DNA from: Alteromonadaceae bacterium
Lineage (GTDB): Bacteria; Pseudomonadota; Gammaproteobacteria; Enterobacterales; Alteromonadaceae
Length of the DNA stretch: 64,000 nucleotides
Direction: 5' to 3'
Assembly (NCBI GenBank): GCA_015487235.1
Contig: WFQC01000152.1
Coordinates: 47,751 to 111,750, forward strand
Below, one piece after another: positions 2,696 through 49,291 of this stretch. The notes beneath the pieces were generated by a model, which was not told where the DNA came from, ran no database searches, and was given only the letters and a program-made list of their open reading frames with translations. The position numbers and the translations under genes were made by a program. The stretch's first letter is position 1, and each line of letters opens with the position of its first letter.

Positions 2696-2699
2696 AACT

Positions 2700-3245: not shown

Positions 3246-3257
3246 CGTTTACTCCAA

Positions 3258-3572
3258 CTAAACTAATTCATTATTTGATTTGAAAAAACGTACTTTTTTA
3301 CCGTCTTCAAATCGAAATCCAACACGATCAGCCTTGCCTGTAGCAGGGTTTAAAATCGCAACGTTAGATACATCAATAGGTGCTTCTTTTTCAATGATGC
3401 CACCAGCTTGCTGTAACTGAGGTACAGGTTTTTGGTGTTTCTTGACTAAGTTAACGCCTTCTACAAATACTTTGCCTTTAGCAACAAGAACTTTAGTGAC
3501 TTTACCAGTCTTACCCTTGTCTTTGCCAGCTAGTACAATTACTTCATCATCACGACGAATCTTAGATGCCAT
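3258..3572 (-). CDS. rplX: 50S ribosomal protein L24
   Basis: 104-aa [28 protein letters not shown] (KOW motif). Confidence 0.97.
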
Positions 3573-3584
3573 TATTGTGACTCC

Positions 3585-3953
3585 TTATAGTACTTCTGGT
3601 GCAAGTGAAACGATTTTCATGAACTTTTCAGTACGCAGTTCACGTGTCACAGGACCGAAGATACGAGTTCCAATTGGTTGTAAATTTGCATTTAAAATTA
3701 CAGCCGCATTGCCGTCAAAGCGAATGGTTGAGCCATCCGGGCGACGAACACCCTTTTTAGTGCGCACCACTACCGCGTTCATAACATCACCTTTTTTTAC
3801 TTTGCCGCGAGGAATGGCTTCCTTCACTGCAACTTTGATGATGTCACCTATGCGTGCGTAGCGACGGTGCGAGCCACCAAGGACCTTTATACACTGTACA
3901 CGTCGAGCGCCGCTATTATCAGCAACGTCAAGCTGTGATTGCATTTGGATCAT
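3585..3953 (-). CDS. rplN: 50S ribosomal protein L14
   Basis: 122-aa [31 protein letters not shown]. First gene of the spc operon. Confidence 0.97.
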
Positions 3954-4102
3954 TGTTTTGCTCCATTTTATTCTTTTTTATAAAAACTTATAAAAAATCA
4001 TAATTACTATTTAAAATTCAAGGCCAGAAATTAACCCGTCACTGCCTTATTAATCCCGTTTTTAGACGCTAAAAAACAACATCCAAATTAAGCGGGCGCG
4101 AG

Positions 4103-4111
4103 ATTATAACA
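4103..4111 (-). promoter_or_regulatory. Candidate extended -10 promoter of the spc operon
   Basis: The minus strand reads TGTTATAAT (TGnTATAAT extended -10), about 150 nt upstream of the rplN ATG. No good -35 element is visible. Confidence 0.45.
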
Positions 4112-4182
4112 CCAGTTAACAAAAAGTGGTACTTTAATTTAGCTAAAAAATAAACAGAGTGTGAAAAAAATCTGACCACTAA

Positions 4183-4217
4183 CAAAAAAGCCTCACTATT
4201 TACATAGCAAGGCTTTT
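4183..4217 (-). terminator. Hairpin plus U-run downstream of rpsQ (S10 operon end)
   Basis: Minus-strand RNA reads AAAAGCCUUGCUAUGUAAAUAGUGAGGCUUUUUUGUU. The stem AAAAGCCU/AGGCUUUU is followed by a U-run and starts about 30 nt after the rpsQ stop. Confidence 0.5.
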
Positions 4218-4248
4218 AATCTAGGTAACTTCGTTTATATCAAAGCAA

Positions 4249-4497
4249 TTAAGCTTTAGTTACTACGTCAACTAATGTCCAAGACTTGGTCTTAGAAATT
4301 GGTGCGCATTCACGAATTGTTACGATATCACCTTCATTACACTGGTTAGTTTCATCATGTGCTTTCAACTTAGTTGAGCGAGTCATGAACTTTCCGTAAA
4401 TTGGGTGTTTTACACGGCGCTCGATCAGGACAGTAATAGACTTATCCATTTTGTCACTGACAACACGACCTTGTAGTGTACGAATTTTATCGCTCAT
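4249..4497 (-). CDS. rpsQ: 30S ribosomal protein S17
   Basis: 82-aa ORF with [30 protein letters not shown]. Confidence 0.97.
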
Positions 4498-4688
4498 TAC
4501 TTACCAGCCTTTTCAGTTATGATAGTCTTAACGCGCGCAATATTGCGGCGTACCGTTCTAAGCAAGTGTGTTTGAGCTAGCTGACCAGTGCTTGCTTGCA
4601 TGCGATAGTTAAACTGTTCGCGCAATAAGTCTAGTAATTCAGCATTAAGCTCTTCAATGCTTTTTTCTCTCAGTTCGCTAGCTTTCAT
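4497..4688 (-). CDS. rpmC: 50S ribosomal protein L29
   Basis: 63-aa [34 protein letters not shown]. Confidence 0.97.
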
Positions 4689-5101
4689 TACATCACCGTC
4701 CGAGTTACGAAGGTTGTTTTAAACGGAAGTTTAGCTGCCGCTAAAGCAAATGCTTCACGGGCCAATTCTTCTGAAACACCTTCCATTTCATATAAAACAC
4801 GACCAGGAAGAATTTGACAAACCCAATATTCTACTGAACCTTTACCTTTACCCATACGAACCTCAAGAGGCTTTTTAGTAATAGGCTTGTCAGGGAATAC
4901 ACGGATCCAAATTTTACCTTGACGCTTAACGTGGCGAGTCATTGCTCGACGAGCGGCTTCGATTTGACGTGCTGTCATACGACCACGTTCAACCGATTTT
5001 AAGCCGAAAGTACCGAAGCTAACTGTGCTACCTGTGTGTGAAAGACCACGGTTGCGCAGTTTCATTTGCTTACGGAATTTAGTACGTTTTGGTTGTAACA
5101 T
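4688..5101 (-). CDS. rplP: 50S ribosomal protein L16
   Basis: 137-aa [17 protein letters not shown]... Confidence 0.97.
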
Positions 5102-5112
5102 TACTTATTCCT

Positions 5113-5811
5113 CTACTTACTGCCTTTGCCTTTGCCTTTTCTTCTAGGCTTAGGCGCTGGTTGTTCTGCCTGTAACGGCATATTACCAATCACTTCACCT
5201 TTGAAGATCCAGACTTTGATACCAATTACACCATAAGTTGTGTTACCACGAGCAATAGCATAATCAATATCAGCACGTAAGGTATGTAACGGTACACGAC
5301 CTTCACGATACCACTCAGCGCGAGCAATTTCAGCTCCGCCTAAACGACCACTTACTTGTACCTTGATACCTTTTGCGCCTAAACGCATAGCATTTTGTAC
5401 AGCACGTTTCATCGCACGACGGAACATTACGCGGCGTTCTAACTGGCTAGCAATACTGTCTGCTACAAGTTGTGCATCCATTTCTGGCTTGCGAACTTCA
5501 GCAATATTGATTTGCGCAGGAACACCCGCAATTTTAGATACTTGTAAGCGTAATTTTTCTACGTCTTCGCCTTTCTTACCAATAACAACGCCTGGACGGG
5601 CGGTATGGATAGTAACACGAATACTTTTCGCAGGTCGTTCGATAACGATCTTCGACAATGAAGCACGTTTAAGCTTTTCAGATAAAAATTCACGAACTAA
5701 ATGATCGCCTTTTAAGTTATCTGCATAGTCTTTGCTACTTGCAAACCAAGTAGATGCGAAAGGTTTCGTGATACCTAAGCGAATACCAGTAGGATGGACT
5801 TTTTGACCCAT
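5113..5811 (-). CDS. rpsC: 30S ribosomal protein S3
   Basis: 232-aa [17 protein letters not shown]... with a basic C-terminal tail. Confidence 0.97.
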
Positions 5812-5822
5812 TCTAATATCTC

Positions 5823-6155
5823 CTAGTTATCAGACACAATCACAGTAATGTGACTTGTGCGCTTCAATATACGATCCGCGCGACCTTTCGCACGAGGCTT
5901 AATGCGTTTCATTGTTGGACCATCGTCAACCATAATAGTTTTAACGTATAATTCATCAATGTCTGCACCTTCGTTATGCTCAGCATTAGCAATAGCAGAG
6001 TTCAATACTTTCTTAACTAATACGGCAGCAGATTTGTTGCTGTATGTTAAAATTTCTAAAGCTTTCTCTACATTTAAGCCGCGGATTTGATCCACAACCA
6101 AGCGTGCTTTTTGAGCAGAACCGCGGGCAAATTTATGTTTAGCGATTGCTTCCAT
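5823..6155 (-). CDS. rplV: 50S ribosomal protein L22
   Basis: 110-aa ORF with [17 protein letters not shown]. Confidence 0.97.
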
Positions 6156-6166
6156 CTAATTTCCCC

Positions 6167-6460
<294 letters not shown>

Positions 6461-6473
6461 TTAATGAGTACTA

Positions 6474-7298
6474 TTATTTAGTACGACGACGTACGATGAA
6501 TTTATCGGTACGCTTGTTCTTACGAGTTTTATAACCCTTAGTTGGTACACCCCAAGGTGATACCGGATGACGACCGCCTGAAGTTTTACCTTCACCACCA
6601 CCGTGTGGATGGTCAACTGGGTTCATAGCAACACCACGAACAGTTGGACGAACACCACGCCAGCGCTTAGCACCAGCTTTACCTAAGTTGCGAAGCATGT
6701 GTTCAGCGTTACCGATTTCACCTAATGTAGCGCGACAATCAGCTTCAACTTTGCGCATTTCGCCAGAGCGAAGACGTAAAGTTACGTAAGCACCATCTTT
6801 AGCAACTAATTGAGCATAAGCACCAGCAGCACGTGCAAGTTGTGCACCTTTACCTGGCTTTAACTCAATAGCATGAATAACACTACCTAAAGGTATATTA
6901 CGTAATGGTAAAGCATTACCTGCTTTGATCGGTGCATCTACACCAGACTGGATAGTATCTCCAGCTGATACGCCTTTTGGCGCTAAGATGTAACGACGCT
7001 CACCATCTGCATATAACACTAATGCAATGTTAGCACTACGGTTTGGATCATATTCCAAACGTTCTACTTTTGCAGGAATACCGTCTTTAGTACGTTTAAA
7101 GTCAATAATGCGGTAGTGTTGTTTATGTCCACCACCTACATGACGTACCGTAATACGACCCGTATTGTTACGACCACCAGACTTAGATTTAGTATCAAGT
7201 AGTGGAGCGTAAGGCTTACCTTTGTGTAACTCTGGGTTAACCACTTTAACGACGTGACGACGACCCGGAGAAGTAGGTTTACATTTTACAATAGCCAT
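6474..7298 (-). CDS. rplB: 50S ribosomal protein L2
   Basis: 274-aa [22 protein letters not shown]... Confidence 0.97.
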
Positions 7299-7310
7299 TC
7301 TCTAACTCTC

Positions 7311-7613
7311 CTATGCTTCTGCGCCGACGAAGTCGATATCGCTACCTTCTTTAAGAGTAACGTAAGCTTTCTTCCAGTCGCTACGACGACCAAAACGAGC
7401 ACCTGTACGCTTTGTTTTACCCTTAACATTTAGTGTACGAACACCGGTTACTTCAACGTCGAAAAGTTTTTCAACTGCTGCTTTAATTTCAGCTTTATTT
7501 GCATTGGTCGCTACTTTGAAAACAACAGTGTTGTTTGCTTCAGCAGAGATGGTTGCTTTTTCAGAAATGTTCGGTGCCAAAAGCACTTTCAACAAACGTT
7601 CTTCGCTTATCAT
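7311..7613 (-). CDS. rplW: 50S ribosomal protein L23
   Basis: 100-aa ORF lying between rplD and rplB. Confidence 0.95.
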
Positions 7614-8218
7614 GCTAACATCTCCTCAATTTGCTTCACTGCGTCAGCAGTAACCAATACTTTTTCGAAACCGACTAAGCTAACAGGATCAATACCTGCT
7701 ACGTCACGAACATCAACTTTATACAAGTTGCGAGCAGACAAGAATAAATTCTCATCAACTTCTTTCGTTACAATTAAAACATCTTTTAAATCAAGATCTT
7801 TTAATTTAGCTACTAATTCTTTAGTTTTTGGTGTTTCAACAGAAAAATTGTTAACAACGACTAAGCGTTCTTGACGAACTAACTCAGATAAAATGCTGCG
7901 GATTGCACCACGATACATTTTACGGTTAACTTTTTGGCTGTGATCTTGCGGTTTAGCAGCGAATGTTACGCCACCTGAACGCCAGATTGGACCACGAGTT
8001 GTACCAGCACGTGCACGGCCAGTACCTTTTTGACGCCATGGCTTCTTGCCACCGCCGCTAACTTCTGAACGAGTTTTTTGAGCGCGAGTACCTTGACGAG
8101 CACCAGCTGCATAAGCAACTACTACTTGGTGTACTAAAGCTTCATTAAACTCACGTCCAAAGGTTGCTTCGGAAACTTCAAGAGCGCCTGACGCGTCTTT
8201 TAATGCTAATTCCATCAC
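7610..8218 (-). CDS. rplD: 50S ribosomal protein L4
   Basis: 202-aa [16 protein letters not shown]...[27 protein letters not shown]. It overlaps rplW by 4 nt. The second ATG may be the true start. Confidence 0.97.
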
Positions 8219-8233
8219 AAATCTCCTTAGACG

Positions 8234-8872
8234 TTAGGCTTTAACAGCTGGTTTAATGATGACATCGCCGTTAACAGCACCCGGAACTGCACCTTTAATA
8301 AGAAGCAAGTTACGTTCAGCATCAACACGAATCAATTCAAGGTTTTGCGTAGTTACTTTTGCAGCACCCATGTGACCAGACATTTTTTTACCTTTGAAAA
8401 CGCGACCTGGTGTTTGACACTGGCCGATCGAACCGTTTGAACGGTGAGAGATCGAGTTACCATGTGTTGCATCTTGCATGCTAAAGTTCCAGCGTTTAAT
8501 ACCGCCTTGGAAACCTTTACCTTTAGATGTACCAGTTACGTCTACTAATTTAGTGTCTTTGAAAAGCTCAACAGTAATTTCACTGCCAGCCTCTAGACCT
8601 TCACCTTCACCCGCACCTAAGCGGAATTCCCACAAGCCACGGCCTGCTTCGATACCTGCTTTTGCAAAGTGACCAGCGGTTGGTTTGTTAACACGGTTAG
8701 CTTTTTTGCTGCCCGTAGTAACTTGAAGCGCTGAATAACCATCGTTATCTACAGTTTTAACCTGAGCAACGCGGTTGGCTTCAACTTCAAGGACTGTTAC
8801 TGGAACAGAAACGCCATCTTCAGTGAAGATACGAGTCATGCCCACTTTACGTCCAACTAGACCTATAGTCAT
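8234..8872 (-). CDS. rplC: 50S ribosomal protein L3
   Basis: 212-aa [23 protein letters not shown]... Confidence 0.97.
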
Positions 8873-8887
8873 GGTTAAAACCCCCTA

Positions 8888-9273
<386 letters not shown>

Positions 9274-34219: not shown

Positions 34220-34738
34220 TTAAAAATCAATGCGTTCAATAATTTTGTTCGCAACCACTTTTGCACTTTGATCATCCGTTGGAACAATCACATCGGCAAT
34301 TTCTTCATAAAGTGGGTTACGCTCTAACGCTAATCTTTCTAATACTTTACGAGGCTCTTCTGAGGTTTGTAATAAAGGACGACGACGATCCCTTTGTGTA
34401 CGAGCCACTTGCTTATCAATCGTTGTTTCAAGATAAACGACAATACCGCGAGCCGATAAACGGTTACGAATTTGGCTGCTGATCACTGAACCACCACCTG
34501 TAGCAAGTACAATACCTTGCTTTTCAGTGAGATCATTAATAACGCCTTCTTCACGTTTTCTAAAGCCTTCTTCACCTTCTAAATCAAATACCCAAGCGAT
34601 ATCTGCGCCGGTACGACGTTCAATTTCTTGGTCTGAATCATAAAAATCAAGATGAAGCTTTTCAGCTAGCTCTCTACCGATAGTGCTTTTGCCGGCACCC
34701 ATTGGGCCTACAAGGAAAATGTTACGTTTTTCTGCCAT
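34220..34738 (-). CDS. aroK: Shikimate kinase
   Basis: 172 aa, with P-loop [12 protein letters not shown]. Confidence 0.95.
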
Positions 34739-34894
34739 GAGACTTACTTAATACTCGTAATATAATTGCGTTAATAGGTCAAACCAAATGGATTAAGCAA
34801 ACATAAAATGCTGCGAACTATCCTTTTGATACAGTCAGAGGTCTCCCTCAAAATTTTTAAGGGCGTAATTATCGCAATTGTTCGCTATAGATTG

Positions 34895-34936
34895 CAAGTA
34901 TGTGAGCAATATTAAACTCACATACTTGTATTTTTT
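34895..34936. terminator. Strong 12-bp hairpin between pilQ and aroK
   Basis: The stem is CAAGTATGTGAG-CAATATTAAA-CTCACATACTTG. The T-run follows on the plus strand, whereas on the transcribed minus strand an A-run precedes the stem. Its function as a terminator is therefore uncertain. Confidence 0.4.
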
Positions 34937-34946
34937 CAGTTATAGG

Positions 34947-36992
34947 TTAAAAGTTTTCTGTAATAATGCGTGGTGTAACAAAGATAAGTAATTCTTTTTT
35001 CTCATTAAAGTTATTAGTATTTCTAAATAACCAGCCAAAATAAGGTACGTCGCCTAATACAGGTACTTTTGACACTGTACTAATAACCGCTTGTTGATAT
35101 ATACCACCAAGCACAATTGTTTCGCCATTATTAACTAACACTTGGGTACCAATGCGTTGTGTATCAACCGCTGGCGCATTACCACTTTGCACTTCAGACA
35201 CAGTATCTTGTGTCACAACCAAGTCCAAAATAATACGATCATCAGGCGTGATATGCGGTGTTACGGTTAAACTTAATACGGCTTTTTTAAATTGTACGGC
35301 AGTAGCACCACTAGATGCTGCTTGTTGATAAGGAATTTCTACACCCTGTTCAATATAGGCTTCTTTTTGGTTAGCCGTAGTAATACGCGGACTCGCAATA
35401 ATTTCGCCTTTATTTTCTTTTTCTAAAGCACTTAACTCTAAATCAAGAATGGTACCATCAGCTAAACGTGCCACCTGAAACGCAATGCTACCAGCACCAG
35501 CGCCTGCAGGTAGGTTTACATTCATACGATCACCAAGCGCAGGAGTAACTCCTCTACCCGCACTGTTAGCACCTTCTAACGTACCCGCACTTGAATATTC
35601 ACCATCCGTATTCGTTACGCCCCAACGAATGCCAAGCTCTTCATTAACATTATCTTTTACCGTCACCATACGCGCTTCAATAACAACTTGTCGAACTGGA
35701 ATATCAAGTACGCTGATCATACGTTTAATATCTTCAATACTTTTTGCCGTATCACGAATTAACAAAATATTAGTACGTTCATCAACTGTTACAGAACCTC
35801 GTGGAGATAGAATACTGGTTTCTTCATTTTTAACTAAATTAGCAATATCAGCTGCTTTAGCATAATTAACTTGCACATATTCTGAATAAAGAGGTGCTAG
35901 TTCTGCAACTTGTTGGCGTGCTTTTAAATCTTTTGCTTCTCTCGCAGCCAGCTCATCACTCGGGGCAACCATTAAAATATTGCCATCCATGCGCTTATCA
36001 AGGCCTTTAACTTTTAGTATAATATCAAGGGCTTGATCCCACGGCACACCGTCTAAGCGCAACGTAATATTACCCGCCACAGTATCACTGGTAACTAAGT
36101 TAAACCCGTTATAGTCAGCAATAATCTGTAAGACAGTACGTACTGGAATATCTTGGAAGTTCAACGAGATTGCACGGCCTGAAAAATCATCATCATCGCC
36201 CAAATAACCCGGCTTTTTAACTTTTTCTTCTACCGTTAATGAAAATACATTGTTTGCTTGTTGGTGCTTAAAGGTAAAGTCGCCATTAACATCAATCACT
36301 AAACGGGCATTATTACCTTCTTTAAATGTTTCAATGGCCGCAATATTAGTACCAAAATCAGTAACATCAAGCTTGTATAAAAGATCATCTTTAATGTTAG
36401 TATTGTGAAATTCAACATAGATCTTTCCTAACTTATCACTTACATCAACAGCCACCATACTGTCATCAAGGTAAACAAATACTTGCCCTGCACCTTCATC
36501 ATTACGGCGAAAATCAATACCATTGATAGTGTTAATAAAAGTACTACTCACTGGAGATAATTTTGCGAGAGCTGCATTTTTATGTGTCGCATTTAAGATC
36601 AGTGATAATTCATTACCTTGTTGCTTAATATCAAAGACTGATAATTTTTTAAGGTTAACCGTAGCGACAATTTTTCCCGCTAATTTTTGTAAACGAATAT
36701 CATTAACACCAGCATGCTCTACAGGCACTTGTGCTAATTTCTCGTCAAACTGATCGGCATCAAAGGTTATTTCGATACGAGCGGGGGTAACTGATGTTTT
36801 AATGCTTGGCTGTGTCACCATAGGCTCAGAAAGCGTAAACACTAATTCAATTTCATCATTTTCTATGGTGTTATATTTAACACCTGTGATACTAGCAGAA
36901 TAAGCTAGTGATGCAGTTACTAATAAGCCCACAAAAGTTGTTAGCTTTATTGTATATTGTTTAAATTTTTTCATCGTCTTAAATTGCAACAT
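34947..36992 (-). CDS. pilQ: Type IV pilus secretin
   Basis: 681 aa. The secretin C-terminus has VPVLGDVPYFGWLFR, and the N-terminal region is AMIN-like. The start may be the ATG at 36974. Confidence 0.93.
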   Translation of the reverse strand: MLQFKTMKKFKQYTIKLTTFVGLLVTASLAYSASITGVKYNTIENDEIELVFTLSEPMVTQPSIKTSVTPARIEITFDADQFDEKLAQVPVEHAGVNDIRLQKLAGKIVATVNLKKLSVFDIKQQGNELSLILNATHKNAALAKLSPVSSTFINTINGIDFRRNDEGAGQVFVYLDDSMVAVDVSDKLGKIYVEFHNTNIKDDLLYKLDVTDFGTNIAAIETFKEGNNARLVIDVNGDFTFKHQQANNVFSLTVEEKVKKPGYLGDDDDFSGRAISLNFQDIPVRTVLQIIADYNGFNLVTSDTVAGNITLRLDGVPWDQALDIILKVKGLDKRMDGNILMVAPSDELAAREAKDLKARQQVAELAPLYSEYVQVNYAKAADIANLVKNEETSILSPRGSVTVDERTNILLIRDTAKSIEDIKRMISVLDIPVRQVVIEARMVTVKDNVNEELGIRWGVTNTDGEYSSAGTLEGANSAGRGVTPALGDRMNVNLPAGAGAGSIAFQVARLADGTILDLELSALEKENKGEIIASPRITTANQKEAYIEQGVEIPYQQAASSGATAVQFKKAVLSLTVTPHITPDDRIILDLVVTQDTVSEVQSGNAPAVDTQRIGTQVLVNNGETIVLGGIYQQAVISTVSKVPVLGDVPYFGWLFRNTNNFNEKKELLIFVTPRIITENF

Positions 36993-37528
36993 TACTTCCT
37001 TTGCCCCTCTGCACCTGGCTCAACCATGGTAATTATAGTTTCGCGTTCCACCCAGCAACCAGCGCCATCTGGAATTAATTCAATCACTTTCACTTCACTC
37101 TCATTCACTTCTGTAATACGACCATTATATAAGCCTAAATAATTACCCACCGTTACTCTATGTAAGGTGCCATCTGAGGCCTCAACTAATGCCCAAACCA
37201 CCCCTAATTCACCTAAGGTTCCTCGCATAGATAAATTATCTAAAGCAAATTTTTCTAGCGGTTGCTTCCGACGACGAGGATCAGGGCTTAAACAACCCGA
37301 CATTTGCTGAATTTTTTCTTGGATCGCTTCAGGCTTCGGTGCAACAAAAGGACTACGCAAAGCACTTGCTGAATAATCATAATGACTAAAACGTGATATT
37401 TCAGGCATAGGTTCAATATAGTTTGACGTATTTTGTTGAACCTTGGCAATATATTCCTTTAAATCACTGGTATCATCAAAACAAGCTGTTAAGAACAATA
37501 CCGACAACAGGATAGCTAATTTTTTCAT
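36992..37528 (-). CDS. pilP: Type IV pilus assembly lipoprotein PilP
   Basis: 178 aa with a lipobox (LFLTAC). Position fits pilMNOPQ order. Confidence 0.88.
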   Translation of the reverse strand: MKKLAILLSVLFLTACFDDTSDLKEYIAKVQQNTSNYIEPMPEISRFSHYDYSASALRSPFVAPKPEAIQEKIQQMSGCLSPDPRRRKQPLEKFALDNLSMRGTLGELGVVWALVEASDGTLHRVTVGNYLGLYNGRITEVNESEVKVIELIPDGAGCWVERETIITMVEPGAEGQRK

Positions 37529-38127
37529 TATTTGCCCCCCTGTTCTTGATAACGGTATGTTTTAGCTTGCAACTTCAAATTCAATTGATTAGGGTTCTTT
37601 CTATCTTCCTCTATCACAAAATCGTGCACTGTTACTATACGAGGTAGTGCTGCAATTCTACTAACAAAGTTACCAAAGTCATGGTAAGACCCTACTACAT
37701 CAATCTCAATAGGCAACTCAATATATATTTCTTTCACAATTTCAGGTTGCCAATTAATGTTAGTAAAATCTAGGCCACTGGTTGTACCCACAAACGTTAT
37801 ATCATCTAATAAACCGGGAGTTTCATGGCTATTAGGTAAACTTTTAAGCTGCGTTGCAAATAATTCTTCGGCTTCTACCATTTGCTGTTGAAATAACTCC
37901 AAATTAGCCGCAACGTGATATTTATTCTGATATTCTTGCTTTAATGTGGCTTCTTTTTTGGTAATTGAGTCTAATTGAGACATTTTATCGCTAATAATAG
38001 CAATATAACCAAAGCCTAAGGTAACAATAAACAGAAAAATGGCCAGTACAACTTTTGCAGCCGTTGGCCATTGGCCGATATTATCAAGTTCTAAGTCATC
38101 AAATTGGGATAAGTCAATATTCATCAT
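37528..38127 (-). CDS. pilO: Type IV pilus assembly protein PilO
   Basis: 199 aa with a single TM segment and a coiled coil. Position in the operon supports the call. Confidence 0.88.
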   Translation of the reverse strand: MMNIDLSQFDDLELDNIGQWPTAAKVVLAIFLFIVTLGFGYIAIISDKMSQLDSITKKEATLKQEYQNKYHVAANLELFQQQMVEAEELFATQLKSLPNSHETPGLLDDITFVGTTSGLDFTNINWQPEIVKEIYIELPIEIDVVGSYHDFGNFVSRIAALPRIVTVHDFVIEEDRKNPNQLNLKLQAKTYRYQEQGGK

Positions 38128-38708
38128 TTATCCTCCTTTGCTGGCTTTTTATCTAGCTCAGTATCAATTAATCCTTTAATGCGTACTTTCATTTTAAAAT
38201 CACTTAATAATTTACTTTTTGCATCATTATTTGATATTGACTCTAAAATTGCATCGCTTAATAAATTAGAGCTTTCAATAGCACGGATCATATTAGCTAA
38301 ATGGTTATTCGATTCACTTTTACCGACAATGAAAAGCGTATTACCTTTCTTCTCTAATTTAGTTAAATAAATACCCGCTGGAACAATTTTAGCAATTTCA
38401 TCTAAAACTTGCGTACCAACATTTCGGCTACGTTGCAACTGTTCAATAACGCGAATACGTTGTTGTAATGCTTGTTTTTTTTCTTTTAAGGTTTTGATTT
38501 CACCAATACGCAAATCAAGCTTTTTAATTTCATTGCTTAAATATTGATTACGCACATTTTGCCCGTCAATGCGTGCTTGATAATACTGATTAATCGCAAA
38601 AACGATAATAAACGCAAAAATAACAATGGCTGTAAGCAGTGTAAAAAATAATTGTTGCTTTGCTTTTTGCGCTTCTTCTCGCCAAGGAAGTAAATTTATA
38701 TGTGCCAT
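38124..38708 (-). CDS. pilN: Type IV pilus assembly protein PilN
   Basis: 194 aa with the conserved N-terminus MAHINLLPWRE. Confidence 0.9.
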   Translation of the reverse strand: MAHINLLPWREEAQKAKQQLFFTLLTAIVIFAFIIVFAINQYYQARIDGQNVRNQYLSNEIKKLDLRIGEIKTLKEKKQALQQRIRVIEQLQRSRNVGTQVLDEIAKIVPAGIYLTKLEKKGNTLFIVGKSESNNHLANMIRAIESSNLLSDAILESISNNDAKSKLLSDFKMKVRIKGLIDTELDKKPAKEDK

Positions 38709-39742
38709 GGTGAAAAGCTCCTTAATGCTAAGCCCGTTGCCACCATAAACTGTGGAGCTATTTTTGCCAATTCATCTTCATCTATTGATTCTGCAATTTC
38801 CATTTCGGCAAAAGGTTTGGCAATTATTGTATAAATACCCAACTCATCAGCAAGTAACTGTTCTACACCTTCAACAAGCGCGGTTCCTCCTGAGATAACA
38901 AGGTAGTCTATTTTTTCTTTACCGCTTGAGGTTAAAAACATTTGAATAGCACGACGCACTTGCTGAACAAGTACGGTATGAAAAGGTGCCAATACTTCAA
39001 AAGTGTAATTAGGCGGTAAATCACCATTTATTTTCGCTAATTCGGCTTCTTCAAACGAAACATTATAATAAGACACAATAGAACGTGTATATTGTTCGCT
39101 GCCAAATAGCTGATCGCGACTATAGATTTCTCTACCCGATTGCGTGGCAGAAAATAGCGTCATTGTGGCGCCAATATCAACAATAGCTACAAGTTTGTCT
39201 GCTGCATCATCAGGAAGATTAGCTAAAATAAGATCATTCACGCGGCTCAGAGTATAAGCTTCTACATCAATCACTTTAGCGGTAAAACCGCCGGCTTCAA
39301 GAGCCGCTACTCTGGCTTCAATAGATTCAGTACGTGCCGCACTTAACAACACATTAACTTTGGTTGGATCAGACTCATTCGCTTCAAGCACTTCAAAATC
39401 AAGGCTAACTTCGTCAAGTGGATAAGGGATCAAGCTATCAGCTTCAATTTCAATTTGGCTATTGAGTTCTTCTTCTGAAAGCGATGCATCCATGTAAATA
39501 ACTTTGGTAATAACCGTTTGCCCGGAAACTGCAGCCGCCGCTTCTTTAACCGATGCCGTTATTTTTTTACGTATTTTAGCCATGACATTACCCACAGCCT
39601 CAATATCTTGAATTTCTCTGTCAATCACTGCGCCTCTAGGCATAGGTTCAATAGCTATCGCTTCAAGCTTATAACCATTTATTCCTTGACTCAGTAAAGC
39701 AGCTTTTACAGAATGAGAGCCGATATCAATCCCGACCATCAT
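38696..39742 (-). CDS. pilM: Type IV pilus assembly ATPase-fold protein PilM
   Basis: 348 aa with an actin-like fold signature (GIDIGSHSVKAALL). An in-frame stop 6 codons upstream fixes the short N-terminus. Confidence 0.92.
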   Translation of the reverse strand: MMVGIDIGSHSVKAALLSQGINGYKLEAIAIEPMPRGAVIDREIQDIEAVGNVMAKIRKKITASVKEAAAAVSGQTVITKVIYMDASLSEEELNSQIEIEADSLIPYPLDEVSLDFEVLEANESDPTKVNVLLSAARTESIEARVAALEAGGFTAKVIDVEAYTLSRVNDLILANLPDDAADKLVAIVDIGATMTLFSATQSGREIYSRDQLFGSEQYTRSIVSYYNVSFEEAELAKINGDLPPNYTFEVLAPFHTVLVQQVRRAIQMFLTSSGKEKIDYLVISGGTALVEGVEQLLADELGIYTIIAKPFAEMEIAESIDEDELAKIAPQFMVATGLALRSFSPWHI

Positions 39743-42671: not shown

Positions 42672-44270
42672 ATGAAACTAGCTAATAAAATCATATTATT
42701 TCCTGTCGTAATTATAGTCACTATATTTACGCTGGGAATATTTGCCCTTGAAGCACAAATTGCACACACGTTAGATAAACATTTAACAGATGAATTAACG
42801 TCTTTATCAACTATAAGCCTATCTTCAGCAAAGCTAATCACACCAACCGAGCAACAAAAATATACCGAGCAACTGAACTTTCTTGCTCAACAAATCGCGC
42901 AAGCAAGCCATGCAAGCGTTTACTACTATTCGCTTAGCGGAGAAAGACTGGCCGGCTCAGATAACTTACTTAGTGATAAATTCTTAAAAATTAATAATAA
43001 TCAGGATAACCCCTTGGCAAATTACCAGTTACGTTATTTAAACCTACCTGAAACGGGACAAACTTGGGTTTTGCTTAGTCAACAAGATAACCAACTAGGT
43101 TTAATAAGTCAGGTTGCGCTACCACAAAACTATTATAAGAGCACACTTTTGGGTATGCGTTGGGGCATCTCAATTATTGGCGTGATCATCTTATTTGCTA
43201 TTGTTATTTTCGCTAGCATCGCGATTAAACTCATTGATTACGTTATTCAACGCGAAAGAGGAAAAATTGAAGAGAAAGTTTCTGCAAAAACCAAAGAAAT
43301 AACACTTATTCAAGCCATGGTTACTATGGTAAATAGTGCGAATTCTGTAAAAAGTGCAGGGATCATGCTCACCACAATACTACCTCGACTTTTACCCGGC
43401 TACAGCGGTGCTATTTACTTGTCAAAAGTCCCTGAAAAAAAACTCAATTTATTGAATTATTGGGGTGATGAAACCTTTAGACATATTCAAGCCTATTTAC
43501 GTAGTGATCATGACGAAATACGCTATGAACTTGAATTTCCTTCCTGCTTTCAATTAAGTGATGAGTTCAAAGAGCGCTCTGTGCAAGTTAACTTAAAAAA
43601 TAAAAAGGGGCATTTTGGCGTTGCTTTTTTCTTCAACCCTAAAGGTAAGTTAACCATAAAAGCCAGAGAGACTATCGAGCAGCTTTCAAAACATATGAGT
43701 GATGCTTTAGCTAACGTACTCTTAACCGAGCAATTAAGAAGCCAAGCGACAAAAGATCCACTAACTAATTTGTATAATCGCCGATTTATGCAAGAATTTT
43801 TAGCCAAAGTAGTACATAGAGCTGAACGCCATCATGGTTGTGTCGCAGTGCTAATGATAGATCTTGATCATTTCAAATCTTTTAACGACAAATTTGGTCA
43901 TGAAGCAGGTGATCTTATTTTAGCCAATGTTGCCCAAGCGTTGATGATCAACATACGCTTAGAAGATATTGCCTGTCGTTATGGTGGTGAAGAATTTTGT
44001 ATTATTTGCCCTGATACACAGCTTGTTGATGCTTATCACTTAGCAGAAAAATTACGGATCAAAATCAGCAAACTGTCACTAACATACCAAAATCAACAAC
44101 TTGACAATATAACCATGTCTGTTGGCATTGCTATTTATCCCAATCATGCGCCGTCATGCCAAGTACTCATTCTAAAAGCAGATCAGGCATTATATCAAGC
44201 CAAAGCCCAAGGCAGAAATCGCAGTGTAGTAATCGCTAACGATATCAGCGAAAATACGGCAAGTTTATAA
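42672..44270 (+). CDS. Membrane-bound diguanylate cyclase (GGDEF)
   Basis: 532 aa. Two TM segments bracket a periplasmic region. The C-terminal GGDEF domain has an intact RYGGEEF motif and an RLED I-site. Confidence 0.9.
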   Translation: MKLANKIILFPVVIIVTIFTLGIFALEAQIAHTLDKHLTDELTSLSTISLSSAKLITPTEQQKYTEQLNFLAQQIAQASHASVYYYSLSGERLAGSDNLLSDKFLKINNNQDNPLANYQLRYLNLPETGQTWVLLSQQDNQLGLISQVALPQNYYKSTLLGMRWGISIIGVIILFAIVIFASIAIKLIDYVIQRERGKIEEKVSAKTKEITLIQAMVTMVNSANSVKSAGIMLTTILPRLLPGYSGAIYLSKVPEKKLNLLNYWGDETFRHIQAYLRSDHDEIRYELEFPSCFQLSDEFKERSVQVNLKNKKGHFGVAFFFNPKGKLTIKARETIEQLSKHMSDALANVLLTEQLRSQATKDPLTNLYNRRFMQEFLAKVVHRAERHHGCVAVLMIDLDHFKSFNDKFGHEAGDLILANVAQALMINIRLEDIACRYGGEEFCIICPDTQLVDAYHLAEKLRIKISKLSLTYQNQQLDNITMSVGIAIYPNHAPSCQVLILKADQALYQAKAQGRNRSVVIANDISENTASL

Positions 44271-44288: not shown

Positions 44289-44747
44289 TTGGATAAAATT
44301 TTGATCAGTGCCTGCTTTTTGGGCGAAAAAGTACGCTATAACGGTGAAGTAAAAAGACTTTCGCATCCTTTAATTACCCAATGGAGCAAACAAGGTAGGC
44401 TGATCAGCCTTTGCCCTGAAAGCGCAGGAGGTTTACCAACACCAAGACCACCAGCCGAAAAGCAACCTAATGGGCAAATAATCATGACAACAGGTCGTAA
44501 TGTTACCCAAGCATTTCTTAGCGGAGCTCAACGTGCTTTAGCATTATGCCAACAATATCAAATAAAATATGCACTACTAAAAGAGTCTAGCCCATCTTGT
44601 GGAAGCTCTACCGTATATGACGGTTCTTTTACAAATAAAAAAATAGCAGGTCAAGGCGTTACCACCGAACTATTACGACACCACAATATATTAGTGTTCT
44701 CAGAGAATAATATTGAACATTTAGCCAAACTACTTAAAACGGGGTAA
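44289..44747 (+). CDS. DUF523-family protein (YbbK/TudS-like)
   Basis: 152 aa from a TTG start. ILISACFLGEKVRYNG and SPSCGS are Cys motifs typical of DUF523. Confidence 0.75.
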   Translation: MDKILISACFLGEKVRYNGEVKRLSHPLITQWSKQGRLISLCPESAGGLPTPRPPAEKQPNGQIIMTTGRNVTQAFLSGAQRALALCQQYQIKYALLKESSPSCGSSTVYDGSFTNKKIAGQGVTTELLRHHNILVFSENNIEHLAKLLKTG

Positions 44748-44833: not shown

Positions 44834-46648
44834 ATGCTTAAACTGCTTACTCATTTATTTTTAATACTAACGCTATTTGCCTGTACGCAAACTGCTTCAG
44901 TACAGCAACAAAAAACATCAACAGCACAGGCAAAATTAACACAGCTTATTCAAGATGAAGCGCTTTTTAGAAAATCAGCAAGCCCTTTTAATCGGTTAGA
45001 AGTTGGGGGAAGTAATGCTCAACTACCTGATTTGTCTGCTGAAAAACTTGCCGACAACCACCAAAAGCTCAATAAAATTTATCAACAGTTAACACAAATT
45101 AATGCCCAAGCACTCCCCTTAGCTTCGCAAATTGACTTATCAGTACTGTTATACAAATTGAAAAATGAATTAGACAGCTATAACAACCATGAACATTATA
45201 TGCCCTTAACGGCAGAGTCTGGTTTTCATGTTTGGATCGCTAATATTAATAAACGCGTTAAGATGAAAACTGAGCAAGATTATCAAGACTACCTTGCGCG
45301 CTTACATGCTTTACCTCAGTATTTTGAGCAACAAATAGCATGGATGAATAAAGGCATTGCAGCAGGTATAACACAACCTCAAGTTGTTTTAAAAGGGTTC
45401 GAACAATCAATTTTGGCTTTTATTAAAAACACTCCTGAAGAAAGTAGTTACTACCAACCTTTCAAACAGTTTCCCGCACATTTTACTCATGCACTGCAAG
45501 CAAAATTGCAACAACAAGGCAAACAAGCCATTAAAGAAAAAGTATTTCCAAGTTATAAAAAATACTATCACTTTATGGTTGAACATTATCAACCGATGGC
45601 ACGTAAAAATATTGCTGCCACTTCATTACCTAAGGGTAAAAATTATTACCAAAATCGCGTACAACATTACACAACGTTACCCATATCAGCAGATGAAATT
45701 CATCAAATAGGTCTAAACGAAGTTGCTCGCATTAAAAAAGACATGCTGACTATTATTACTGAATTGGGCTTCGACGGAAGTTTTGCTGATTTTATTCAAG
45801 ACCTGCGTACAGATCCGCAGTTTTATGCTAAAACCCCCAAAGCATTATTAAAAGAAGCTGCTTATTTAGCGAAAAAAATGGATGGCAAATTACCAAAATT
45901 ATTTAAAACATTACCAAGAACGCCCTATAGTGTTGACCCAGTACCCGCCAACATTGCTCCTAAATACACAACAGGGCGCTATTCTCCACCAAACAGAGAA
46001 GATCAAGCGGGTAGTTATTGGGTGAACACTTACCGTTTAGATCGTCGCCCACTTTATGTTTTACCAGCCTTAACCCTACACGAAGCCGTACCAGGCCATC
46101 ATTTACAAGGTTCTATCGCAAAAGAAATGAACAATGTAGCTGAATTTCGCAACAACACTTATATATCTGCGTTTGGTGAAGGTTGGGGGCTTTATGCTGA
46201 ATATTTAGGTATTGAAGCCGGTATGTATGAAACGCCCTACCAACAATTTGGGCGCTTAACTTATGAAATGTGGCGAGCATGCCGATTAGTCGTTGATACC
46301 GGTATTCACAGTAAAGGTTGGACTCGCCAACAAGCCATTAATTATCTAGCAGAAAATACCGCCCTTTCATTACACAATGTGACCACTGAAATAGATAGGT
46401 ATATCTCATGGCCAGCACAAGCTTTGTCTTATAAGATGGGTGAAATTACCATCAAAAAACTGCGTAACAAAGCCGAAAAAGCGCTAGGCGAGTATTTTGA
46501 TCTACGTATATTTCACGATAAAATACTTGAAAATGGCTCTATGCCATTGTCTATGTTAGAGAAAGTTATATCTAAATATATTGAACAAGAGAGTAGAAAA
46601 ATAAAGGAGAAGGGAAGGCACGCAAAGTTAACCACAGAGAAACCTTAA
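44834..46648 (+). CDS. DUF885-family lipoprotein (putative metallopeptidase-like)
   Basis: 604 aa with a lipobox-like N-terminus (LTLFAC) and the HEAVPGHH motif of DUF885. Confidence 0.8.
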   Translation: MLKLLTHLFLILTLFACTQTASVQQQKTSTAQAKLTQLIQDEALFRKSASPFNRLEVGGSNAQLPDLSAEKLADNHQKLNKIYQQLTQINAQALPLASQIDLSVLLYKLKNELDSYNNHEHYMPLTAESGFHVWIANINKRVKMKTEQDYQDYLARLHALPQYFEQQIAWMNKGIAAGITQPQVVLKGFEQSILAFIKNTPEESSYYQPFKQFPAHFTHALQAKLQQQGKQAIKEKVFPSYKKYYHFMVEHYQPMARKNIAATSLPKGKNYYQNRVQHYTTLPISADEIHQIGLNEVARIKKDMLTIITELGFDGSFADFIQDLRTDPQFYAKTPKALLKEAAYLAKKMDGKLPKLFKTLPRTPYSVDPVPANIAPKYTTGRYSPPNREDQAGSYWVNTYRLDRRPLYVLPALTLHEAVPGHHLQGSIAKEMNNVAEFRNNTYISAFGEGWGLYAEYLGIEAGMYETPYQQFGRLTYEMWRACRLVVDTGIHSKGWTRQQAINYLAENTALSLHNVTTEIDRYISWPAQALSYKMGEITIKKLRNKAEKALGEYFDLRIFHDKILENGSMPLSMLEKVISKYIEQESRKIKEKGRHAKLTTEKP

Positions 46649-46670
46649 AAATAGTGCACTGAAAAATCCA

Positions 46671-46772
46671 GATAAGCCCCCACTATATCTAAATTCGGCA
46701 GTCCCGCTATCATAGGTTTCCCCTTAGACCGGTAACTTTGCGTCTCTAACTTTCGTTAGATTTGCCCTTATC
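46671..46772 (-). promoter_or_regulatory. c-di-GMP-I (GEMM-I) riboswitch aptamer
   Basis: The minus strand reads GATAAGGGCAAATCTAACGAAAGTTAGAGACGCAAAGTTACCGGTCTAAGGGGAAACCTATGATAGCGGGACTGCCGAATTTAGATATAGTGGGGGCTTATC. In order it contains GGGCAAA, a 6-bp hairpin with a GAAA tetraloop, GACGCAAAG, a hairpin with a CUAAG/UAUG receptor-like loop, and AGCGGGACUGCC. This is collinear with the V. cholerae Vc2 aptamer. A GAUAAG/CUUAUC helix closes the element. Confidence 0.85.
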
Positions 46773-46794
46773 GAGCTTTAGTAGCTCATTTGCA

Positions 46795-46822
46795 ATTATA
46801 GTTATTGCGCTACGATTGTAAA
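46795..46822 (-). promoter_or_regulatory. Sigma70-type promoter driving the riboswitch
   Basis: The minus strand reads TTTACA-16 nt-TATAAT (-35 at 46817-46822, -10 at 46795-46800), 23 nt upstream of the aptamer. A small 5' hairpin, GAGCU-ACUAA-AGCUC, lies between the promoter and the aptamer. Confidence 0.65.
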
Positions 46823-46892
46823 CAAAAATTTTTCAAGTTGACTAAATTAATTTATTCAACTGAAATAAAACCAAAAAAGAGACTTACATTTG

Positions 46893-48743
46893 ATGATCAA
46901 AAGATATTTCTGGCTAGCCCTTGCTGTTTATTTCATTAGCGTACCTGCTGTTTTTGCAGCTTTAGCACCAAGTAATGATCAAAAGATAGAAGAAAATATT
47001 GCTCTTATTAACAGTTTTTATCGGTATAAAGGTGAAGTGCCGCCCTATAGCCAAATTGTTACTCTTGCCACAACCGTGATCAAAAACAGTAAAAGTTACA
47101 ATGATACCATCATAGCAAAAGCCTATGTTTTACTTGCCGATGCTGCGATTTATCAAGGAGATACGGCAAAAGCAGTGCAATTTTCTCAAGATGGCTTAAC
47201 GCAAGGCATGATTGATACCGATGTAAAACTTAATTTATTAATGAAAGTAAGCGCTGGTTTTTACATTCAGAGTAATTATCAAGCGGTATTAAAAACTATT
47301 GAACAAGTACTTGAGTTAGCCGTAGGTGAAAAATATTTAAAATATCGACTCAGCGCTTTTGGTTATCAAGCCACTATTCATGCCTTAGCTGGCGAATACG
47401 AAAAAGCCTATAAGCGATTAAAAGACATTGATATTATATTAGATAAAAACCCTCGTTTTACTGATCAAATTGAATTATTACAAATACTGGCTTTGGCTAA
47501 TCATAATTTAAGAGATTTTGAAACTTCACTGGCACTACACCTTAAATTATTACAAATTCAATTTAACTTAAATTTGAAAGAAAACATTGAACGTACTTAT
47601 TACTATTTAGCGCAAGCCTACCTTAAATTAGCGCGCTATGATGATGCTTATAATACTTTTTGGCAGGTAAAACTCTTAGCAGAAAAAAAATCTGCGCCTA
47701 TTTTACTCGCTTATGCTGAATTAGGTATTGGCGAAACCCTTTATGAACAAGGTGACTACGACGTTGCTTATTCGTCGTTAATCAAAGCGGAAAAATTATT
47801 TCGAGGTAAAAATTTAACCAAACTTTACCTTACTAACTTAATTGTATTGTCTAAAGCAGCCAAACAAACAGGGCGTACTATTTTTGCCTCACAATTACTG
47901 CAAAAGGCTGAAGAATTATCAACAAAAGCAGAGCTCGATCCTGATCAAATAATTCTTTACCAAATGCTTGCCCACAAATACCAGCATCAAGGTGATTACC
48001 AAAAAGCATTAAGCTTGTTAACCAAGTATGTAAGTGCAACAGAAAAACTAAAAGGTGAAGAGCTTGCCAAAGCAAAACTGCCTAAAAATGCAAAACAAGC
48101 TTCACAAAAAAGTAAAGACTTGGCGTTAAAGTTATCAGAGAAAGGTACTTTATATGCCGACTATAATAAAAACCATCAACGACTTATATCATATATTTGG
48201 GGGTTAGTTGCGCTGGTGGCAATACTAGCCATTGCGATGATATTTATTTGGTTAAAGTATCGTAATTACCGACTACGGGTTGAATATAATGAAATTGAAG
48301 CGCCCAAAGATTATTTACCATCGCCAGTAAAAACCAAAAATATTTATCAACAACAGTATAAAGAAGCGCGCAAATTTGAGTACCCTATTACCATTGTCTA
48401 TATTCTGGTACGCAACTGGCACGATCTATCTCATCATTTTACAAAAAGAGTGATGAAAGATGTGCACAAAGCTATAGCACAGCTAATTAACGAAAATATT
48501 AGTGAATTTGAAATTGCTGGTTGCCTTAATGAAGGTGAATATATCATTTTATTTCCTCATCGCACCAAGCAAGCGTTAACTGCCGAATTATCACAATTAT
48601 CACAGGCAATCAAAACAAGGTTTTTTGCCAATTTAGGTGAGTTTTCTGTTATCATTGAAATGTCGGCACAAACGCCCGATATACAAGACATTGACCCTTT
48701 TGTTTTCTTAGCTCAGCTAACTGAACAGCTAAAAAGCAAATAA
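46893..48743 (+). CDS. TPR-repeat protein with TM segment and degenerate GGDEF-like C-terminal domain
   Basis: The track ORF starts at the TTG at 46890, and an ATG follows at 46893. The protein has a signal peptide or anchor, about 380 aa of TPR-like repeats and a TM segment (LISYIWGLVALVAILAIAMIFIW). Its C-terminal domain aligns to GGDEF, but the active-site motif reads NEGEY and the RxxD position reads SEFE. Confidence 0.75.
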   Translation: MIKRYFWLALAVYFISVPAVFAALAPSNDQKIEENIALINSFYRYKGEVPPYSQIVTLATTVIKNSKSYNDTIIAKAYVLLADAAIYQGDTAKAVQFSQDGLTQGMIDTDVKLNLLMKVSAGFYIQSNYQAVLKTIEQVLELAVGEKYLKYRLSAFGYQATIHALAGEYEKAYKRLKDIDIILDKNPRFTDQIELLQILALANHNLRDFETSLALHLKLLQIQFNLNLKENIERTYYYLAQAYLKLARYDDAYNTFWQVKLLAEKKSAPILLAYAELGIGETLYEQGDYDVAYSSLIKAEKLFRGKNLTKLYLTNLIVLSKAAKQTGRTIFASQLLQKAEELSTKAELDPDQIILYQMLAHKYQHQGDYQKALSLLTKYVSATEKLKGEELAKAKLPKNAKQASQKSKDLALKLSEKGTLYADYNKNHQRLISYIWGLVALVAILAIAMIFIWLKYRNYRLRVEYNEIEAPKDYLPSPVKTKNIYQQQYKEARKFEYPITIVYILVRNWHDLSHHFTKRVMKDVHKAIAQLINENISEFEIAGCLNEGEYIILFPHRTKQALTAELSQLSQAIKTRFFANLGEFSVIIEMSAQTPDIQDIDPFVFLAQLTEQLKSK

Positions 48744-48772
48744 TAATATAAACACAGCAGACGCTTAATTTT

Positions 48773-49291
48773 ATGATTTTTATTATTGCCATCATCATTA
48801 TTTTCTTTGTGCTTATTGTTTACTTATATTTTCGTACTGAAAAGTTACAACTTTCTTTAAGAAAAGCACAATCAGCTGACAGAAATAGCAGAAAAGAAAA
48901 TAAAGCCTTGCTCGAAACGCTTATGCTGGTTGCCAATACACAAGAAACGTTTGTTAAAATACGTCTACAAAATTTAAAAGATAGTTTTGTTAATGATAAA
49001 ACAATTAGCCAAGAGTTAGATTTACTCAGCCCTCTTATTAATAATTATGCCATTATTTTTACTGCTTGCTTAAAGGGTAAAGGGCAATTATCTATTATGA
49101 CTAAGCGATGTTATGAAAGCTTAGATAAAAACAGCTACAAAAAGTTTATCGTTTTTATTAATCAACAAGATCAAAAAACTAAGCGTATGTGGAATAGCAA
49201 TACTTTATCTGGATATATTTCACTGACAGAAACATTATTACAGAAATTTGAGCAATTACCTGAAAAGAAAAAGCTTGCCGAAGCAAGCTAG
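48773..49291 (+). CDS. Hypothetical membrane-anchored protein
   Basis: 172 aa with an N-terminal TM segment (IFIIAIIIIFFVLIVYLYF) followed by a predicted helical region. It starts 29 nt after the TPR gene. Confidence 0.6.
   Translation: MIFIIAIIIIFFVLIVYLYFRTEKLQLSLRKAQSADRNSRKENKALLETLMLVANTQETFVKIRLQNLKDSFVNDKTISQELDLLSPLINNYAIIFTACLKGKGQLSIMTKRCYESLDKNSYKKFIVFINQQDQKTKRMWNSNTLSGYISLTETLLQKFEQLPEKKKLAEAS

Follow-up and report, generated by a model that had tools for sequence, protein, structure and literature searches.

A c-di-GMP-I riboswitch without a downstream gene: a predicted two-state non-coding RNA convergent with DUF885 in Alteromonadales

Introduction

What a riboswitch does when no gene follows it is largely an open question, and it is raised by a locus in a 64,000-nucleotide (nt) stretch of Alteromonadaceae DNA (GenBank assembly GCA_015487235.1, contig WFQC01000152.1, positions 47,751 to 111,750), to which we refer as the window. 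Its minus strand carries an aptamer of the GEMM-I class, whose ligand is c-di-GMP (cyclic dimeric guanosine monophosphate), oriented towards the stop codon of a DUF885 gene on the opposite strand. To our knowledge, the gene-less c-di-GMP riboswitches described so far are merRNA, the function of which is unproven, and the Vc2 small RNAs (sRNAs) only.

A preliminary description of this DNA had treated the element as an aptamer lacking an expression platform. This view did not hold, as the aptamer is followed by a conserved arm of approximately 70 nt, complementary to it, with which the RNA is predicted to inactivate itself. We describe this RNA, its relatives and its surroundings below, and weigh the outputs it may have.

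Results and Discussion

The aptamer and its promoter

A cmscan search with 4227 Rfam families returned a single match across the window, to RF01051 (c-di-GMP-I) at 46776-46694 on the minus strand, scoring 82.7 bits against a gathering score of 35 (E 8.9e-15) and covering the model completely (positions 1-87). The c-di-GMP-II family gave no match in a permissive local scan, which added nothing else credible; the RF01051 covariance search proposed in the preliminary description, with class II as its control, thus came out as expected on both counts. All the elements listed there are visible on the minus strand, namely GGGCAAA, UCUAAC-GAAA-GUUAGA, GACGCAAAG, a second hairpin and AGCGGGACUGCC. The first hairpin, P1a, with its GAAA tetraloop occupies 46760-46745, the junction strand ACGCAAAG, which lines the ligand pocket, 46743-46736, and the second hairpin, P2, approximately 46735-46700. 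In the alignment to the model consensus, the pocket-forming junction strands GGCAAA, GACGCAAAG and CUGCC are all present; both hairpins are there too, the first of them capped by a GNRA tetraloop. A G rather than an A precedes CAAA, as in c-di-GMP-specific members. Individual ligand contacts are assigned after the published Vc2 structures. Of the span originally proposed for the element, 46772-46671, the aptamer itself was correctly recognized, although it stops at 46694, and 46671 already lies inside the next hairpin.

Relatives were gathered in two ways. A metagenome pattern, GGCAAA-N6-GAAA-N6-GACGCAAAG-N(92-120)-CTTTGCGTG, returned 100 loci, and comparisons were made on a non-redundant set of 91 RNAs. 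Independently of this pattern, homologs of the TPR protein encoded beside the RNA (41-83% identity) led to 11 loci. One hit of the metagenome pattern, L088 (11937-12074, high GC), was rejected as a family member: it is an ordinary c-di-GMP-I riboswitch before an 843-amino-acid (aa) PAS-type protein, in which CTTTGCGTG forms part of the U-tract of a normal terminator. The aptamers of the relatives match RF01051 at 78.8-83.9 bits, their pocket junction strands are invariant or nearly so among the 91, and P1a covaries, for example at column pair 41/48 (G-C in 45, A-U in 41). By these marks the element is a genuine GEMM-I aptamer, with predicted selectivity for c-di-GMP.

The promoter claimed for it is conserved as well. 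A sigma-70-type site, TTTACA-16-TATAAT, lies at 46822-46795 (-), with the -35 hexamer at 46822-46817 and the -10 hexamer at 46800-46795; it matches the consensus at 11 of 12 positions and ranks best in a 1-kb region, although the number of such sites in that region, 4, is close to the shuffle mean of 3.3. Both hexamers are present in 88 of the 91 relatives, with a spacing of 16 nt in 87, and their position places a putative transcription start site (TSS) near 46788.

Extent and parts of the RNA

Taking the 5' end from the promoter and the 3' end from the limit of conservation, we predict a non-coding RNA of approximately 190 nt (46788-46597, -). It would begin with a 5' hairpin, H0 (46787-46773; GAGCU-ACUAA-AGCUC), in which three of the five pairs show double-sided changes in one of our alignments (A2), and continue through the aptamer into hairpin H4 (46696-46664), followed in the window by a run of five U (46666-46662). 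The H4 loop, UGGGGG (46682-46677), is the same in all 91 sequences, and pairing inside the RNA gives no clear explanation for this. The 3' arm (46676-46607) then comprises a spacer complementary to P2, CUUUGCGUG (46627-46619), which is the complement of ACGCAAAG, and GCC with a pyrimidine tract (46618-46603).

In agreement with the preliminary description, no minus-strand ORF (open reading frame) of at least 60 aa follows the aptamer, the largest being of 40 and 55 aa and both antisense within DUF885. A 22-aa ORF, MIAGLPNLDIVGAYLDFSVHYF (46645-46713, -), which starts at an AUG of the aptamer, was rejected because this start is not conserved, being ACG, AGG or AAG in several relatives. The same-strand downstream gene of a classical 5'-untranslated-region (5'-UTR) riboswitch is lacking, the next gene being convergent in the window and in approximately 90 relatives, and we found neither a conserved U-tract terminator nor a Shine-Dalgarno (SD)-sequestering platform. 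The element is a member of RF01051, yet it stands outside the 5'-UTR context which defines such riboswitches. The locus is instead, as far as its sequence can tell, a self-contained gene for a predicted non-coding RNA, comprising promoter, 5' hairpin, aptamer, H4 and 3' arm.

Two mutually exclusive folds

The arm is complementary to the entire 5' half of the RNA, including both strands of the ligand pocket (GGGC and ACGCAAAG) and both strands of P2. Within it, CUUUGCGU (46627-46620) pairs with the junction strand ACGCAAAG, GCC(U) with GGGC, the pyrimidine tract with the purine-rich 5' flank GAUAAGGG (46772-46765), and the spacer with both P2 strands. The existence of two mutually exclusive folds, either an aptamer with a single-stranded, C-rich arm or a rod devoid of the binding pocket, follows from this complementarity and is well supported by the predicted structures.

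Folding of 46790-46600 (-) yields the rod rather than the aptamer (-67.3 kcal/mol, z -5.2), with H4 at its tip and P1a retained as a side branch, and it is into this rod that the ligand-free RNA is predicted to fold. The unconstrained minimum free energy (MFE) structure is a rod with the ACGCAAAG:CUUUGCGU helix in 91 of 91 non-redundant RNAs. In the metagenome set, the invariance of this helix is to be read as ascertainment, as the pattern demanded both ACGCAAAG and CUUUGCGUG and decayed copies would be invisible to it; the helix is, however, also invariant in the 11 TPR-derived loci, which are free of this bias. Across the 91 RNAs, the mean MFE is -57.3 kcal/mol for the rod and -41.4 kcal/mol with the aptamer locked. 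Compensatory variation points in the same direction. In H4, one covarying pair is A-U in 62 sequences, G-C in 28 and U-G in one, while the variable Y of the aptamer motif GAYAG pairs with the 3' arm as U-A (36), C-G (30) or U-G (6). For helices with reliable columns, 86.5% of cells pair, whereas slid controls reach 35-55%; none of 500 shuffles equals the observed covariation score.

Two approaches were less informative. Owing to the poor alignment of the spacer, RNAalifold gave a mixed and incomplete structure for the 91-sequence alignment, and per-sequence folds and named helices were used in its place. Since there is so little variation in the 5' arm, the energies of cognate and non-cognate arms barely discriminate (-36.1 vs -34.8 kcal/mol). 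Extension of P1 by pairing of CUCGAUAAGG with CCGAAUUUAG was also considered, and was rejected on inspection by eye since a frequent change of CGAU to CGAC, at the fourth base, is uncompensated.

How the two folds may be chosen between is suggested by prefix folding. In the window RNA, P2 leaves the MFE structure at approximately nt 142; among 23 other RNAs (every fourth of the set), it is lost at a median of 6 nt ahead of CUUUGCGUG in 21. The choice would thus be kinetic, with c-di-GMP having to be captured before the rod becomes the more stable fold. Because prefix folding shows where P2 leaves the MFE structure, we estimate that capture would have to occur within some 45-70 nt of transcription, from the end of the aptamer to the point at which the rod is favoured. 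Failing capture, the emerging arm would unzip P2.

This behaviour bears on two simpler views of the RNA. The stand-alone c-di-GMP binder entertained in the preliminary description fits poorly, as an RNA of this kind destroys its own pocket once fully transcribed. A related proposal is that of a sponge or storage RNA for c-di-GMP, as suggested for merRNA, or of an RNA whose stability is set by its ligand, as for Vc2-terminated sRNAs. An orphan aptamer behind a near-consensus promoter is what such a role would call for, and both precedents are published (PMC3627812; 10.1101/617340). However, the conserved arm dismantles the pocket of every finished ligand-free molecule in the predicted folds (91/91), which argues against buffering and makes the sponge less likely; we consider this pair of roles quite improbable.

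Conservation and synteny

The 11 TPR-derived loci share one organization without exception: DUF885, an intergenic region and the TPR gene, in that order, the intergenic region carrying a minus-strand RF01051 match of 79-84 bits. In their alignment, the promoter, the 5' hairpin, the aptamer, H4 with UGGGGG, and CUUUGCGUGCC are near-invariant, followed by the pyrimidine tract, at the end of which conservation ceases. The flanking proteins of these loci are 41-83% (TPR) and 67-81% (DUF885) identical. Within clades that lack a same-strand downstream gene, the RNA is 83-92% identical, compared with 60-70% in the flanks. A scan of genome contigs with the DUF885 protein reached distant homologs alone (≤59% identity), and none of the seven scanned had a riboswitch, so that it is uninformative on synteny.

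In the metagenome set, DUF885 is convergent with the RNA at approximately 90 of the 100 loci. Read in the orientation of the RNA, the convergent DUF885 is followed by a GGDEF gene of approximately 325 aa (GGDEF325) on the RNA strand in 43 loci (class B), by orn in 20 (class C), and by the end of the contig in a further 24. Class D, consisting of the window, L028 and L029, presents DUF885, a desulfurase and a longer GGDEF gene (GGDEF532), all convergent. GGDEF325 lies directly downstream on the same strand in nine loci (class A), orn is convergent in two (class C2), the desulfurase is convergent in three (class E), and eight have an unclassified layout. In classes C and C2 (for example L043, L056, L068 and L135), orn stands just beyond DUF885, or, in L068 and L135, faces the RNA directly in convergent orientation. 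Breakdown of c-di-GMP yields pGpG, which Orn in turn degrades, and the neighbourhood is in this sense repeatedly c-di-GMP-related.

The presence of GGDEF325 on the RNA strand suggests a more conventional role, in which the RNA is a long regulated leader of this cyclase gene, running antisense through DUF885 in the manner of an excludon, and the window has lost the cyclase and kept the riboswitch as a leftover. The 43 class-B loci carry GGDEF325 approximately 2 kb downstream, the nine class-A loci have it directly after the RNA at 160-620 nt, and no terminator was detected in the gaps examined. Yet GGDEF325 has a conserved promoter-like motif of its own, TAGATATTTG...CTAGAGAATAG, 40-66 nt before its start, in both classes (L074, L078, L052, L093 and others), with or without an intervening DUF885. 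Class A is, moreover, polyphyletic and nested among class B: L074 is 92% identical to the class-B locus L093 in GGDEF325 and 76% in the TPR protein, and the other class-A clusters are likewise nearer to class-B loci than to one another. Given this polyphyly and the separate promoter-like motif, the direct arrangement appears to have arisen secondarily, through loss of DUF885, and the convergent, ORF-less layout is probably the older. An untranslated antisense leader of 1.8 kb would also be a target for Rho. Lastly, clades C and D, which lack GGDEF325, keep the RNA at high identity, as detailed next. We therefore regard a leader function as unlikely.

Clades C and D have no same-strand gene, and their RNAs are 91-92% identical, while their TPR proteins average 65-69% identity (down to 55% within class C) and the flanks 60-70%. 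That the RNA is kept while its surroundings diverge argues for selection acting on the RNA itself. The convergence with DUF885 noted in the preliminary description is accordingly conserved in relatives and probably ancestral, and no accident of one genome.

It may be asked whether the inverted repeat serves the other strand instead, as a 3' structure or terminator of the DUF885 mRNA, or whether the element is a decaying relic. The plus strand of the RNA gene (46597-46790) does fold into a rod (-51.6 kcal/mol, z -4.0), and the DUF885 mRNA, for which no other terminator is evident, probably runs on through this structure. Against such a reading, the RNA strand folds more stably than its opposite in 85 of 91 cases, and 11% of inter-arm pairs are G-U pairs, which would be lost in the opposite transcript. 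The aptamer keeps a score of 79-84 bits everywhere, the promoter is conserved, the RNA is retained where DUF885 is missing, and its conservation is well above that of the flanks. We hold this last explanation to be very improbable indeed.

The favoured output and its main rival

With no ORF to control, and with a gene that ancestrally abuts the 3' end of DUF885, an antisense output appears the most likely, in which the convergent DUF885 transcript would be the target of an antisense or non-coding RNA gated by c-di-GMP. We favour this tentatively, at somewhat short of an even chance. A promoter of its own and an orientation convergent to the target, two marks of a riboswitch-controlled antisense RNA, are both found. 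In class B the DUF885 stop lies a median of 24 nt past CUUUGCGUG, and in class D it overlaps the arm; therefore, even an RNA of approximately 190 nt would be antisense to the 3' end or 3' UTR of DUF885.

Two routes may be envisaged. Firstly, the ligand-bound fold would bare an arm perfectly complementary to the 3' end of the DUF885 mRNA. Secondly, the fold could set the reach of minus-strand transcription into DUF885, through access of Rho to the C-rich arm. The arm is C-rich and G-poor (median C/G 1.9 vs a background of 1.0, approximately the 90-95th percentile), and this composition is compatible with a Rho loading site exposed solely in the ligand-bound fold. In the class D lineage, the desulfurase and the cyclase would be part of the targeted convergent transcript as well. 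The preliminary description had proposed feedback into a cyclase operon, which suits only the window, L028 and L029; in most relatives, DUF885 is not downstream of that cyclase, and either a small GGDEF gene lies divergent to it or orn comes next, so that the conserved partner is DUF885 and not the cyclase string.

Intrinsic termination was considered as a read-out, and two candidates were rejected as features of the family. For the rod as terminator, just 22 of 91 RNAs (background 15%), none of them in class C, have a U-run of at least four no more than 15 nt from the rod base. For H4 with its U-run, the combination is present in the window and in many class-B RNAs, and is missing from class C as well as from some other RNAs. 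Class C has no intrinsic terminator in the interval that separates the RNA from the convergent gene.

Several observations weigh against regulation of DUF885. No conserved read-out element was found, U-runs being scarce after the rod base and missing after H4 in class C, and the moderate, rut-like C/G bias of the arm is equally explained by its complementarity to the G-rich 5' half. The gap to the DUF885 stop in class C is 31-439 nt (median 156). The RNA persists without DUF885 in classes A, C2 and E (14 loci), which argues for a function independent of that gene, and it is also kept in a few loci without the TPR gene (L050, L097, L102 and L115). To these should be added the ascertainment of the metagenome set described above, and the fact that the RNA itself, along with its TSS and 3' end, is predicted from sequence.

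The same persistence lends weight to the main rival, a trans-acting, c-di-GMP-gated sRNA. Here the rod would be the inactive state, the ligand would free the arm or alter the exposure of UGGGGG towards an mRNA or protein, and the position beside DUF885 would be inherited synteny. The RNA would form a transcription unit of its own behind a conserved promoter, its conservation ends with the pyrimidine tract as in sRNA genes, the module outlives the loss of either DUF885 or the TPR gene, and the UGGGGG loop is invariant without a clear intramolecular reason. A precedent is offered by S-adenosylmethionine (SAM) riboswitch RNAs acting in trans (10.1101/803072). On the other side, the complement of the UGGGGG loop is not enriched in the window (six matches vs 8.0 expected), and its sole exact match is the RNA gene; the arm spacer differs in sequence between lineages, which would be unusual for a seed region; and no Hfq-type terminator with a U-tail is present. 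This alternative is one we doubt, though seriously entertain.

A narrower proposal concerns the arm itself as the output domain. Captured c-di-GMP would leave some 60-70 nt of C-rich arm free for base pairing, either in cis, antisense to the DUF885 mRNA at its 3' end, or in trans with the ACGCAAAG of other GEMM-I aptamers. Pairing in trans with this core, which is common to the GEMM-I aptamers of a cell, is conceivable because the invariant CUUUGCGU is its exact complement. We rate the arm in this role as rather unlikely.

Relation to known systems

In logic, the antisense arrangement favoured here has its closest analogue in the S-box/ubiG riboswitch; similar is AspocR of Listeria, reportedly an antisense RNA under the control of a B12 riboswitch. 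The S-box (SAM-I) riboswitch of Clostridium acetobutylicum lies downstream of, and convergent to, the ubiG-mccBA operon, and yields a ligand-dependent antisense RNA (PMC2566862). Both loci have their own promoter on the 3' side of an opposite-strand gene and no ORF, although antisense output is described there and predicted here. Our RNA further differs in its ligand, in having no conserved intrinsic terminator, and in its platform, an arm that unzips the whole aptamer. Its host is a gammaproteobacterium, on which account Rho is a likely player.

By ligand, merRNA and the Vc2-terminated sRNAs are closest, and the architecture differs from both. The merRNA of Bdellovibrio bacteriovorus, of 445 nt and massively expressed, is a proposed sponge, and is not conserved outside Bdellovibrio (PMC3627812). 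We liken the two by description, as each is a c-di-GMP-I riboswitch within a non-coding RNA without a conserved downstream ORF; unlike merRNA, the RNA described here is of approximately 190 nt, has an anti-aptamer arm, and is spread over more than 100 loci of diverged Alteromonadales. In Vibrio cholerae, Vc2 forms the 3' end of sRNAs before tfoY, and ligand binding shields these from degradation (10.1101/617340). There, as in our proposal, a gammaproteobacterial c-di-GMP-I aptamer decides the fate of a non-coding RNA, beyond translation of a downstream gene; here, the aptamer would stand at the 5' end, with the arm after it and no gene following. With canonical 5'-UTR riboswitches such as Vc2 or Bc1 (PMC11218506), our element shares the aptamer, the GAAA tetraloop, the junction strands and a competing alternative pairing. 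It differs from them in lying outside a 5' UTR, in a competing strand that is not confined to P1 or the 3' strand but spans the whole aptamer-proximal half, and in using neither a terminator nor SD sequestration.

Neighbouring genes and other features of the window

The account of the flanking genes in the preliminary description was accurate, including the DUF885 stop at 46648. The convergent DUF885 gene (44834..46648, +; PF05960, E 8e-169) encodes a protein whose translation shows an HExxH motif and which is predicted to be a lipoprotein. It is preceded on the same strand by a GGDEF cyclase gene (42672-44270; PF00990), with GGEEF and an RxxD I-site, and, between the two, by a 2-thiouracil desulfurase gene (44289-44747). 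The last 17 or so codons of DUF885 are antisense to the 3' arm of the RNA in the window. As a separate observation, the RNA gene may have shaped the C-terminal tail of this DUF885 (46597-46648) as a read-through extension.

Divergent from the RNA lies its conserved upstream neighbour, a TPR, transmembrane and degenerate-GGDEF-like gene (46893..48743, +). The label of degenerate GGDEF is plausible and weak: the C-terminus of the protein scores 18.9 bits against GGDEF, below the cut-off of 23.8, and has NEGEY in place of GGDEF. Together with the next gene, encoding a 172-aa protein of no Pfam family, it forms a pair (46893-49291, +) kept beside the RNA in nearly all loci for which the sequence reaches far enough. 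A TPR protein pair tuning a cyclase, RcbAB, has been described in Vibrio (PMC12282931), and we liken the present pair to it by description. A possible promoter for the TPR gene, TTGACT-17-TGAAAT (46843-46871, +), was read by eye and is absent from the promoter-scan list; its -35 hexamer would lie approximately 20 bp from that of the RNA promoter on the opposite strand.

Elsewhere in the window, two runs of short, tightly packed ORFs (560-9199 and 34220-39742, both on the minus strand) resemble a ribosomal-protein operon, and a pilM-containing cluster adjoins a PBP1A gene; the Pfam comparison covered pilM and PBP1A. Among the relatives, L038 (Thalassotalea montiporae) carries at 133-231 (-) an ordinary thiamine pyrophosphate (TPP) riboswitch, RF00059 (68.2 bits), before thiC. 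Judging by the names borne by homologs, the host of the window belongs to the Alteromonadales and is related to Thalassotalea.

Conclusions

The family described here offers a compact, predicted two-state RNA found at more than 100 related marine bacterial loci, Thalassotalea being one of the cultivable relatives that carry it. Its neighbourhood abounds in c-di-GMP genes, among them GGDEF cyclases, the TPR protein with its degenerate GGDEF and orn. Should the ligand prove to gate an antisense or trans-acting function of the RNA, c-di-GMP signalling would gain an RNA-to-RNA output branch, and an entire aptamer would be seen to serve as one arm of a kinetic switch. If, in addition, the freed arm paired in trans with other GEMM-I aptamers of the cell, it would be a riboswitch that regulates other riboswitches.

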